The notes under the pieces were generated by a model. The model was not told the DNA's origin. It saw only the letters and a list, made by a program, of their open reading frames with translations, and did no database searches. A stretch of 64,000 nt of DNA, from the NCBI GenBank assembly GCA_963769025.1, contig CAVYKI010000006.1, positions 64,001 through 128,000 on the forward strand, written 5' to 3'. Each line of letters begins with the position of its first letter. Position 1 is the first letter of the stretch. Position numbers and translations under genes: made by a program. This DNA is from an uncultured Verrucomicrobiae bacterium. Lineage in GTDB: Bacteria > Verrucomicrobiota > Verrucomicrobiia > Chthoniobacterales > Chthoniobacteraceae. Of the stretch, positions 55,255-58,672 are shown piece by piece.

Positions 55255-55698
55255 CTATTTCTGCTGCCGGACCAGATCGGCGAAGCGCGCGAGTTGGTCG
55301 GCCTCCGCAGCGCTGCCTTCCTTGCGGAGCTTCTGCGCCTTCGCTTCGAGTTTCGCGACTAGGATGCGCCGTGCGTCGTCCGTCCCGGCTGCGAGCCTGG
55401 AGCGGGCTTCCGCGGAAAGTTGCGACAGCTCCGCTTCCACGCTCTGCCACGCGTCGCGCGCCTTTGGCGAATCGATGGTGCCCTCCGCAAGCCGCGTCCA
55501 CTGCTGCGGCAGCAGGTCCGTTCGCCCGGTCCACCCGTCGCGGACAAACCAAAACACGCCGGCCGCGAGCACCACCACCACGGCAAGCGTGATCATTTTC
55601 AGAAGCCCGCGCAGCAGCAGCGAGAAGATGAGCAGCGCCACCGCCGCGGCACCGCAGGCGAGCACCTTGTCGGTGAATAAATGCCGCCAGCCGTCCAC
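55255..55698 (-). CDS. Hypothetical membrane protein (two TM helices plus helical C-terminus); start uncertain
   Basis: ALLIFSLLLRGLLKMITLAVVVVLAAGVFWFV followed by charged helices. Confidence 0.65.
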   Translation of the reverse strand: MDGWRHLFTDKVLACGAAAVALLIFSLLLRGLLKMITLAVVVVLAAGVFWFVRDGWTGRTDLLPQQWTRLAEGTIDSPKARDAWQSVEAELSQLSAEARSRLAAGTDDARRILVAKLEAKAQKLRKEGSAAEADQLARFADLVRQQK

Positions 55699-55910
55699 AC
55701 TCGGAGCCGCCGCCGCGACGTTCGCGAAGCAGACGGCGCAGAGCGCGGGGAGGACGGAGCTGACGGCTTCTCCGCCGGGCAGCGCCTGCCGCCCGGGAGT
55801 TTTGGCTGGTGAAGGGTGAATGGTGGCCTCGGGTTGAATCTCGAGACTCGATACGCGATGCCACGCCCTTCCGGGTTCTGAACGCCGCCACCGCACCCAC
55901 CCACACGGAT

Positions 55911-56678
55911 TCACCAGCCTTCCTGCTTGAGGTAGGAGGATTTGATGATCCCGATGTTCGCGGACCGGCATCCGCGGATCCTGGCTGCCGGGCTGCATGT
56001 CGCGCATCCATGCTCAGCGGGCGGACGCTGCCGTCGAGGAACGCTGCCAGTGCATCGCGTCCATGCCGGAAATGCATGGTCTTCTGCGTCGGATCGAGCA
56101 GGTAGAACTCCTCGACCATCGGCTTCTTCGCCGACGCGGGCGCCTGGAAGGTGTTCACCTGCGCACAGGTGGCGAAGACGATCATCTGCGCCGGATCCTC
56201 GACGCTAAGCGAATTGCGCGGCGCTCCCGGTGGAATCGGCGACCAGCGCGACGTTGTAGCCGTAGCCGTAGTTTCCGTTTTGGTAATTCGGCTTCAGCCG
56301 CGGGCTTGAACGCCAAGGAAGGCGGGGTCGGTCTTGACGCCACCCGACGCGCTTCGCGTTCCGCCCGAGCGGTCCCCTCGAATAATCGCAGGTTCGTTTT
56401 CCCTCGGCCATTTTCGACGAGGCGGTCGTCTCGAAACCAAACCACCACTGCATCCACCGTCTGGCTCCACGCCCTGCCGATACGGCCAGGGAAGGTGCCT
56501 GTCGTGGTCCTTGAGGTAGAGGTGCCCCGCCACCATCAACTGGCTGAGCGAATGCGCGCTGATGGCCCGTGCGCTGGCCATCTTTGCGCGCGATGACACG
56601 GCCATCGATCAGCGCGCTGAGGATGGCAATGATTGCCACCACCACGAGCAGTTCGATGAGTGTGAAGGCCTTCTTCAC
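55911..56678 (-). CDS. Prepilin-type N-methylation domain protein with H-X9-DG motif (DUF1559-like), indels
   Basis: KKA|FTLIELLVVVAIIAILSAL; YGYGYN; HFRHGRDALAAFLDGSV; ends YLKQEGW*. Confidence 0.88.
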
Positions 56679-56690
56679 GGCAGCGCGATT

Positions 56691-57638
56691 CTAGACGCGC
56701 CGCCTCCTGACGAAAGCGAGCACCCCGCCTCCGGTGAGAAGCAGCAGCGCAGTCGTCGGCTCCGGTACCCAGTAGCGTGACGCCGATCTGATGAATGGTC
56801 ATGTCGCCGATGAGCGCGGGCGTGGACGGGTAAAAGGAATTGTAGCCATCCGCGTAGGCCATGATCGCGAGCGAATCCACGGCGAAGCTCGGACTGATGA
56901 ATGACAAATCCAGCGCAGGCAGGCCGGTGTCCAGAAAGGCCAGCGACGAATCCTGCAGGGTGAGAGTCAGCAGCTCGGTCGCCGCCGTGTAATTCAGTGT
57001 CGCGATGAGCAACGTGGCCTGCGGCAGCTGATCGATGGCCTGCATTCCATCAGCGAGATCGGAGTCATTGCCATACGACGCCGCGAAATTGCCGAATGCA
57101 TCGCCGCGGCGATCTGCGCGCCGAATACCGAGGGCGTCAGGGCCGTCCGAAGTCGTACGTCGGCGACAGATTTGGGTAGTAGCTGAACTCGACCGTGCTG
57201 AACACGTTGGATGAGCCGGGTGCCGGATAGAATGGATCACTCGGGCAAGCCCGGTGCGATTCCCCCCCGTGACCGAATGATTCACGAGGCCGAACGCGAA
57301 CCTGCATGAACTCGTTGTCCGGGGCGCTTTGCGTGACGTTGGTGAAGCTGAAGCGGGCCGTGAGTGTGAATTCATCCGTGCTGGTCGTCGCGCTGGCCGG
57401 AATCGGCAAATCCAGGGCGGACCGTCGGCTTTGAGGACATCCACATGCACGCGCAGGGTGCTCTTTCCGGTTAATCCCACACAAACTGACCGTTCGAGTT
57501 ATCGCCCGCCCCGAACGTCCAGCCATTGGTTGAACGGGTCGGTCGAGAAGTCCGAGACCACATTGATGGCTGTCGAGACGCGCAGCCAACGCAAGCGTGA
57601 GGACGCCGGCACCGGCCAGGATTAGTTTTCTTTTTCAT
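56691..57638 (-). CDS. PEP-CTERM sorting-domain surface protein (indels)
   Basis: C-terminus VPEPTTALLLLTGGGVLAFVRRRRV*; ATG at 57638 followed by a basic N-terminus. Confidence 0.88.
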
Positions 57639-57714
57639 GGTTGGTCTCTGTTGGTTGAGAGAGACCAGGACACGACACGGCGCAGAGCGCGCCGCGGCGA
57701 GCAGACTGATCCCT

Positions 57715-57955
57715 CATTCTTCTTTTTTGCGAAGAAGTTTTGCCGCGCGCATCCGCACACGCGGCGGCGCGAATGAGAGCGGATCGGGGAAATGTTCTGG
57801 CTCCTGGCTTGCGGCACCGCCCGGCTTTCGCCCGCCAACCTTCTCCCCGCCTTCACCTCCGCTGTCGCGGAGATTGGCACATGGGGAGTCGTATCCAGTT
57901 ACAGCAGCGCAACTGCTTCCGATTTTCACGGAATTCCTTCCACCGATCCGCTAAC
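57715..57955 (-). promoter_or_regulatory. Cobalamin riboswitch (variant)
   Basis: Minus strand GGAA-TTCCG-TGAAAAT-CGGAA-GCAG-TTGCG-CTGC-TGTAA-CTGG...GCCAAT..GAAGGC...CCAG-GAGCCAGAACA-TTTCC; closing 10-bp stem; downstream hairpin loop complementary to L5. Confidence 0.85.
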
Positions 57956-58023
57956 GTTGAACTCGCAAAGAACTGAGCCCGCGTTGAACAGCCAGCGGCA
58001 GCGTGCGGCAAGCAAAATTTCGG

Positions 58024-58672
58024 TCAGCGTTTTTTTCCCCGCGCCGGCTTTTTCCCCGCGTCGCGTCGCGCTGGCCCGCAGGCGGTGAGTTGCGACACGA
58101 TGTCCTCCAGCGCCGCGAGGCCAAAGCTGATCTTTTTGAAGAACGACCGGTTGTGTGGGACGAGCACGAAACGCGGATGCCCCGACCATAGGACGCGCAG
58201 CCTGCGGTCCAGTGCCACGGCCTGCTCGGTGGTCTCGTTGCGAATCGGATTTCCGCCCTCGATGCTGGCGCCTCCGACCGCAGCGGACTCAAAAAAGATG
58301 ACGGCATCGTAGCGCGCCAGCTCGGCGTCGAGGGTCGTGCCGCTCGCCTTGAAGCCTTCCTTCCGTCGAGCCGGGCGGGAGTGGGCAGAGCCATCCACCG
58401 TGCCGCGGTCGCAGAGCAGGATGCGGTCGGGGTAGCGGGCTCCCTGCACGTCCTCCAGTCCGCGCTGCAGATGGAAGATCGCCATATCGCAGCGCGGGAC
58501 GCAGGCGCTGCGTGCCGGGAAAGCCACCGCTGAAAAGCAGCGTCGCCGCCTCGGGCACGAACACCACGCGCTCGCCGATCTCGCGCCGGAACAAATGGCC
58601 TGCGGTCGTCTTCCCCCCGCCGGGACCGCCGGTGAGGACGATGCGGCAGCGTCCATTTTGTGAAGGATTCAT
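58024..58672 (-). CDS. P-loop NTPase (AAA_28/NadR-like nucleotide kinase fold), indels
   Basis: RIVLTGGPGGGKTT, VPEAATLL, LLCDRGTVDG, RYDAVIFF, NPIRNE. Confidence 0.85.

Follow-up and report, generated by a model that had tools for sequence, protein, structure and literature searches.

The window analysed here, a 64-kb stretch of DNA from the verrucomicrobial genome G000, carries on its minus strand a cobalamin riboswitch followed by two genes, one for a PEP-CTERM surface protein and one for a prepilin-type protein. The aptamer (57770..57961, −; window coordinates throughout) matches the full RF00174 model over positions 1–189 with 54.3 bits (E 9.9e-11), above the gathering threshold of 31.5, and is the sole Rfam match within the 64 kb. 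The covariance model thus bears out the aptamer that the initial annotation had read upstream of the PEP-CTERM gene from the letters alone; its distance from the ATG at 57638 is corrected from about 80–310 to 132–323 nt. The folding z-score of the leader is −4.15 against shuffles. A sigma-70 consensus scan returned no promoter; a probable one (57983..58011, −), TTGCCG and TTCAAC at a spacing of 17 nt, is proposed; L051 shares its hexamers and spacing, and L044 is arranged similarly. A conserved 5′ leader segment (57963..57973, −) is complementary to the loop side of a downstream hairpin, which lends it a putative role; it is nearly invariant in 19 aligned leaders, the variation being too small for a pairing test. 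Upstream of the riboswitch, a frameshifted AAA_28-type gene (58024–58672, −) keeps its position in several genus relatives.

Downstream of the aptamer, the leader appears to hold an expression platform of the translational type (57639..57777, −), made of competing helices. In one, CUCAUU (57777–72) pairs with AAUGAG (57718–13) and encloses the hairpin 57737–19; in the competing helix, GAGGGAUC (57715–08) pairs with GGUCUCUC (57666–59), and folding indicates that the latter can pair instead with the ribosome-binding region at 57649–43. When 19 genus leaders were aligned over the aptamer and four downstream elements, CUCAUU/AAUGAG together with CUUCU/AGAAG was paired in 94.7% of cells, with six double changes and 0 of 500 shuffles as high, a control that kinship alone can pass. 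The GAGGGAUC/GGUCUCUC helix was paired in 100% of cells, its changes being one-sided only and 458 of 500 shuffles reaching as high. A hairpin between GGUCUC and the ribosome-binding region is possible in the window and most close relatives, and is weak or absent in five leaders. A terminator search of the leader gave none. The simplest reading is a translational OFF switch, the direction being taken from the way in which known cobalamin riboswitches act.

The first gene behind the switch (56691..57638, −) would encode a PEP-CTERM protein of ~310 aa from an unnamed family, orthologous to that of L033:3194-4132. It shows a signal-peptide-like start and a VPEP-TM-RRRR tail, and the orthologue scores 19.4 bits with TIGR02595 (cut-off 16) and 20.1 with PF07589, just under the cut-off of 20.7. 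The second gene (55911..56678, −), which starts 12 nt past the stop of the first, would encode a prepilin-type H-X9-DG protein of ~250 aa, here called the pilin. As the initial annotation had it, an A|FTLIE prepilin signature and an H-X9-DG motif are read there: KKA|FTLIELL, with Ala, not Gly, at position −1 of the cleavage site, and RH-GRDALAAFL-DG, a literal H-x9-DG motif. Also in line with that annotation, no btuB, btuF, cob or metE gene lies directly behind the pair; a small membrane protein gene comes next, then a kinase-like gene. The former (55255–55700, −) has a weak DUF4131 match below the cut-off and trails the operon in pilin- and receptor-bearing members of the genus alike.

Both genes are frameshifted, being split over several reading frames with 25–36 non-triplet gaps relative to four intact orthologues. 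This could mean that both are decaying pseudogenes in this strain, a reading we regard as most improbable: 17 of the 26 neighbour genes that have an intact copy for comparison are also multi-frame, metH included, and the genes are intact on a second haplotype. Because so many neighbours are affected, the breaks are most likely read errors or assembly noise, and protein work was therefore done on intact orthologues. The second haplotype lies on contig C8, within a copy of the same 48-kb region (80–97% identical) that holds the other of the two riboswitch matches in G000; each of the two leads a PEP-CTERM gene and a pilin gene. The leader (83%) and the pilin region (~80%) are retained on C8. The PEP-CTERM coding region of C8, however, is unalignable to that of the window and encodes an unrelated protein of 227 aa. 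Since this gene differs between the haplotypes, the slot behind the leader holds an exchangeable cassette. The small contigs of G000 (C1, C5, C7, C8, C11, C13) are largely divergent duplicates, 80–98% identical, of regions on large contigs, and the assembly thus mixes strains or haplotypes.

Intact orthologues of the pilin pass TIGR02532 (26.8–28 against a cut-off of 16.3) and PF07963 (26.3–26.8 against 21.2). With the DUF1559 (PF07596, SBP_bac_10)/H-X9-DG (TIGR04294) family they share the N-methyl prepilin motif, the length of ~250 aa and the RH-x9-DG near the C-terminus, and the nearest named Atlas cluster is DUF1559 (0.92). They differ from it in staying under the cut-offs of both models; thus, the G014 orthologue scores 12.8 against 19 with TIGR04294 and has no PF07596 match. 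Other riboswitch-led pilins do pass, L039 with TIGR04294 (22.6) and L038 and five Planctomycete loci with PF07596. In the available part of its description, the DUF1559/H-X9-DG family of PVC bacteria is expanded, accompanied by secreted-protein genes and given no ligand (PMC8567305). The expansion initially noted for PVC bacteria is not pronounced in this genome, which has 23 prepilin motifs and 2–3 H-X9-DG-like motifs. Of the 24 genus relatives, 22 each have a single strong match to the pilin profile, and the window pilin would, by sequence, belong to a mostly single-copy, B12-associated subfamily, set apart from the wider family by its copy number, its B12 control and its alternation with a TonB receptor (see below). 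It is not a member of the Verru_Chthon cassettes, scoring far below the cut-off. A search of the sequences of solved structures with the pilin gave no match, and a complex prediction with the lectin-fold domain of its partner scored 0.01, which is no answer either way.

The riboswitch is present in all 24 same-genus genomes and in 33 of the 41 genomes searched. PEP-CTERM gene(s) and the pilin gene stand behind it in 20 of the 24 genus relatives, 19 of the 24 having one or two PEP-CTERM genes and then the pilin directly. The operon of G019 is longer, also taking in DUF6580 and a BtuF-like gene, with the pilin last; contig ends interrupt those of G013 and G023. G001 and G010 have a TonB-dependent receptor of 634–635 aa behind a near-identical leader and before the downstream gene common to the pilin-bearing relatives, in the slot that the pilin genes occupy elsewhere. 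The order of riboswitch, PEP-CTERM and prepilin gene, whose recurrence the initial annotation had proposed as a check, is kept within the genus and also in the wider order and phylum, and it recurs in records labelled Planctomycetota.

Pilin and receptor were not found together. Among the 41 relatives, 31 have a strong pilin match, nearly always once per genome, 7 have a full-length match to the G001 receptor (6 of them riboswitch-led) and none has both; in G028 the pilin profile reaches no more than a weak, partial match (E 1.4e-8), and in G025, G032 and G036 neither gene is clearly present. The search was widened to a phylum draw of 151 genomes, none of which except G000 had entered the building of the pilin profile. 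It listed 113 riboswitch matches, of which 100 loci were examined, 3 were already in the set and 10, being sub-threshold, were placed by coordinates. A receptor is led by 26 of the 100 riboswitches, a pilin is included in 37 loci, and no locus has both; behind the remainder stand cob, nrd, metE-like or mutase genes or others without relation to these (Pfam check of 15). Four of the ten sub-threshold matches adjoin a receptor and six a pilin. Counted by genome, the 31 with a riboswitch-led receptor and the 69 with a pilin (E ≤ 1e-12) do not overlap. A Planctomycete-phylum draw (61 genomes, best 30 loci, 20 of them extended by up to 10 kb) gave 7 receptors, 4 pilins, 19 loci with neither and none with both. 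In the genomes searched, then, the pilin excludes a riboswitch-led BtuB-like receptor, where ‘BtuB-like’ denotes riboswitch control rather than a match to a BtuB-specific model. Both states occur within each of four families (f1, f19, f33, f41), and since the genomes are kin, about four swaps, rather than dozens, can be counted as independent.

The exclusion concerns the riboswitch-led receptor. G000 keeps three TonB receptor loci outside riboswitch control, its best match to the receptor of its relatives being plug-only (E 5.7e-19), and other TonB receptors likewise persist in many genomes with a pilin. PF00593 goes unmatched in 9 of the 31 pilin-bearing relatives, G002 (100% complete) and G014 (98%) among them, and throughout families f25 (0/24) and f32 (0/14), where the pilin typically lies directly behind the riboswitch. 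Among the 12 top-scoring pilin loci without RF00174, four have a class-II or core cobalamin element, four are cut by contig ends or split, and four, those of G033, G072, G136 and G160, show none; the motif search for missed aptamers recovers only 33 of 100 known loci, so that its misses weigh little. A sub-threshold cobalamin element is found at 2 of 8 weaker pilin paralogues. In G136 (L195:2726-3100), an operon of DUF4465-PEP, GPYAP-PEP and pilin genes has a divergent Fur-family regulator gene in the riboswitch position, possibly a switch to metal-dependent control.

In the relatives, the PEP-CTERM slot holds five families: that of the window, DUF4465, and three for which labels were coined in this analysis, namely C8-type, propeller-like and GPYAP-type. 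The DUF4465 protein of G013 matches the B12-bound structure 9hmu (E 1.9e-21), and B12 binding has been demonstrated for a Coraliomargarita DUF4465 protein in a paper whose available part mentions neither PEP-CTERM nor prepilin (PMC13398666). C8-type and GPYAP-type proteins have no sequence match to solved structures; the propeller-like label comes from one weak match (1l0q, E 0.021), and the link of the C8 type to DUF4430 is an Atlas lead (0.76). As separate observations, B12-associated surface domains are found fused to each other, DUF4465 to GPYAP and C8-type to ESFAT-type (P0045, P0067, P0073; L102, L103, L110, L117, L123, L142). At six loci of Verrucomicrobiia (L075, L079, L084, L087, L038, L063), the same domains end like RRFYRV instead of PEP-CTERM, a tail whose sequence suggests an alternative anchor.

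What the pilin does for these proteins, or without them, can be weighed from their co-occurrence. Surface proteins are encoded in 22 of the 37 pilin operons, which would suit a pilin that serves as a cargo-specific type II secretion export adaptor for B12-binding PEP-CTERM proteins, B12 itself entering via another, unregulated channel. Indeed, pilin subclades partly track the partner type in a quick tree (a single non-B12 paralogue included, and monophyly beyond its reach), and P0067 joins the lectin-fold domain to DUF1559, although this may be a broken-frame artefact. In addition, the pseudopilin of a Verrucomicrobiota alginate cluster is linked to enzyme export by its authors (PMC13274419). 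However, 15 of the 37 operons are without any of the six recognised surface families and hence without a recognised cargo gene, and in G119 it is a TonB receptor that has DUF4465 and GPYAP-type genes on its flanks, the pilin being absent. The pilins of G014 and C8, 72% identical, adjoin unrelated PEP-CTERM proteins, and export does not predict the exclusion of btuB. We therefore consider the export role unlikely. The operons without surface families and the G119 arrangement argue instead that it is the pilin, and not the PEP-CTERM protein, that alternates with BtuB. In these comparisons, the pilin is the constant member, often alone behind the riboswitch, and the PEP-CTERM gene the exchangeable one. 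The initial view of the two genes as a B12 module gains support from the synteny and from DUF4465 in the slot, with the refinement that the pair is not a fixed one.

The PEP-CTERM family of the window deserves separate treatment. Its relatives comprise 71 close and several hundred distant ones, close homologues are titled Chthoniobacteraceae or Chthoniobacterales, and its sole Pfam domain is the tail. Its loci are riboswitch-led in 20 of 21 cases: 17 were scanned, 16 having RF00174 upstream on the same strand and the lone miss sitting 1 kb from a contig end, and for the other 4 the riboswitch had been established beforehand. Both Verrucomicrobiia and Planctomycetota are represented among these loci, and in the five Planctomycete ones the DUF1559 gene stands first. 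The family has no sequence match to any solved structure; its orthologue has no match to PF14717, and profile comparison with DUF4465 gives a probability of 0.7%. Whereas the single-sequence fold has a pLDDT of 31.6, the model from a 149-row alignment reaches 95.2 and predicts an L-type-lectin/ConA-like β-sandwich, similar to legume lectins with Z 14–15 and rmsd 3.0–3.1 over ~200 residues (5eyx, Z 15.0, 3.0 over 200; 1ciw, Z 14.2, 3.1 over 199). The fold matches listed are lectin/GH16-type sandwiches, with no solved B12-binding protein among them. What separates the family from L-type lectins is the identity of 8–13%, at which fold likeness of a model shows no function, and the B12-riboswitch context; it is the regulation and the slot, rather than the structure, that point to its putative ligand.

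The lectin-like fold brings up a further explanation, in which the operon serves adhesion under B12 starvation: the lectin-fold protein and a pilus adhesin would attach the cell to B12 producers or particles and leave the vitamin itself untouched. Planctomycete pili-like fibres do bind dextran, according to one report (PMC5394234). Yet a proven B12 binder, DUF4465, fills the slot elsewhere, and adhesion would hardly be expected to replace a transporter gene in place, which makes this account very improbable.

As to the host context, metH lies just outside the window, on both haplotypes. Five genus genomes were tested (G000, 83% complete, and G001, G002, G004 and G014): none has a match for CobS or for BtuF (PF01497), and DUF6580 is found in three, G000 among them. 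All five have PilT-family ATPases, secretins and exosortases, with three PF09721 matches for the last in G000. This inventory is consistent with a cell that scavenges B12 and is equipped with a retractile pilus; as the receptor-using G001 has PilT ATPases and secretins too, the machinery does not discriminate between the two states. The missing BtuF in G000, G002, G004 and G014, the Ala rather than Gly before the cleavage site and the Pfam name of the related domain, SBP_bac_10, would all be in keeping with a pilin-like protein that never enters a pilus and acts as an inner-membrane-anchored periplasmic cobamide binder in place of BtuF. We judge this quite improbable, given that G001 likewise has no BtuF, that the exclusion concerns an outer-membrane receptor, and that BtuF-like genes follow the pilin in 5 of 37 operons (against 4 of 26 for the receptor) and are also co-encoded in L063, L080 and L086.

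With moderate confidence, we prefer to read the locus as a B12-repressed corrinoid-scavenging operon: cobamide would be captured by swappable surface proteins, and the prepilin-like protein would carry it across the outer membrane in place of BtuB, presumably as a ligand-specific pilus subunit retracted through a secretin. The switch, the gene order, the cassette exchange and the receptor exclusion are observed; upon these, the following steps would supply repression, binding, assembly and transport. At low B12, the operon would be translated. Exosortase would anchor the PEP-CTERM protein at the surface, where cobamide would be captured much as by BtuG, BtuH, BtuJ and BtuK in Bacteroides. Prepilin peptidase would process the pilin-like protein into a minor, ligand-specific subunit of a type IV or type II (pseudo)pilus. 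This subunit would take up the cobamide and be drawn through the secretin into the periplasm without TonB, and an inner-membrane transporter, DUF6580-type here and BtuF-linked elsewhere, would then supply MetH. The pilin would be the core of such a system, and the PEP-CTERM proteins its optional, swappable parts.

Inward movement of cargo by such machines has been considered before. In competence, pilin-like subunits, retraction ATPases and secretins are proposed to move DNA inward, and pili-like proteins of Akkermansia mucin utilisation reportedly have been proposed to do the same for their cargo. Unlike in type IV pilus uptake systems, the cargo here would be a cofactor of 1.35 kDa, and the operon is without machinery genes.

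The closest known layout is the Btu system of Bacteroides thetaiotaomicron (BtuB, BtuG, BtuH, BtuJ/DUF4465, BtuK), a cobalamin-riboswitch-led operon with several surface capture proteins; the available part of its description has BtuB-centred relays only (PMC13616437). The riboswitch-led layout is the same, and DUF4465 recurs in the operons of the relatives. The differences are threefold. First, the window operon is without a TonB receptor, and a prepilin-type gene is its constant member. Second, the anchor is PEP-CTERM here and a lipoprotein tail there. Third, the surface protein of the window differs in fold. G000 has neither the riboswitch-led receptor nor the BtuF that define BtuB-type operons, and the locus is thus not one of them, though it would work alike.

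Our literature search, with subscription journals and supplements mostly outside its scope, found no paper linking cobalamin riboswitches to PEP-CTERM or prepilin proteins, nor any description of mutual exclusion between pilin and BtuB. A riboswitch-led pilin that alternates with BtuB hints at an undescribed B12 import route. This touches on two open questions: the import of large nutrients by PVC bacteria that have few TonB receptors or lack them, and the function of the expanded DUF1559/H-X9-DG families. With a mostly single-copy B12-riboswitch pilin that swaps with a BtuB-like gene, such studies gain a ligand that can be named, MetH-dependent growth at low B12 as a selection, and a gene to knock out; the unnamed surface families (lectin-fold, C8-type, propeller-like, GPYAP-type) are candidates for new B12-binding folds. 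A tentative generalization, quite possible if short of probable, is that PVC bacteria import nutrients by a retractile pilus and a secretin in place of TonB-dependent receptors, with H-X9-DG/DUF1559 prepilin-like proteins as the receptor subunits, each specific for its ligand. The B12-regulated member would then be the first with a nameable cargo, and the lectin-fold PEP-CTERM family a new cobamide-binding class. Likewise, the tens of paralogues found in other PVC genomes would correspond to the set of TonB receptors that other bacteria possess.

The survey of riboswitch loci also turned up targets of other kinds. Second riboswitches in L003–L006 and L094 lead a gene for the small chain of ribonucleotide reductase (L094 by Pfam, the others by resemblance). 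In family f42 (L089, L091, L092, L093), cobalamin riboswitches of 108–120 bits precede HlyD-type membrane-fusion genes (L089 and L093 by Pfam), an unusual target, and in family f20 (L161, L163, L168, L172) weak cobalamin riboswitches stand before a secreted-looking protein of 1330 aa, the first 600 aa of which have no Pfam match.
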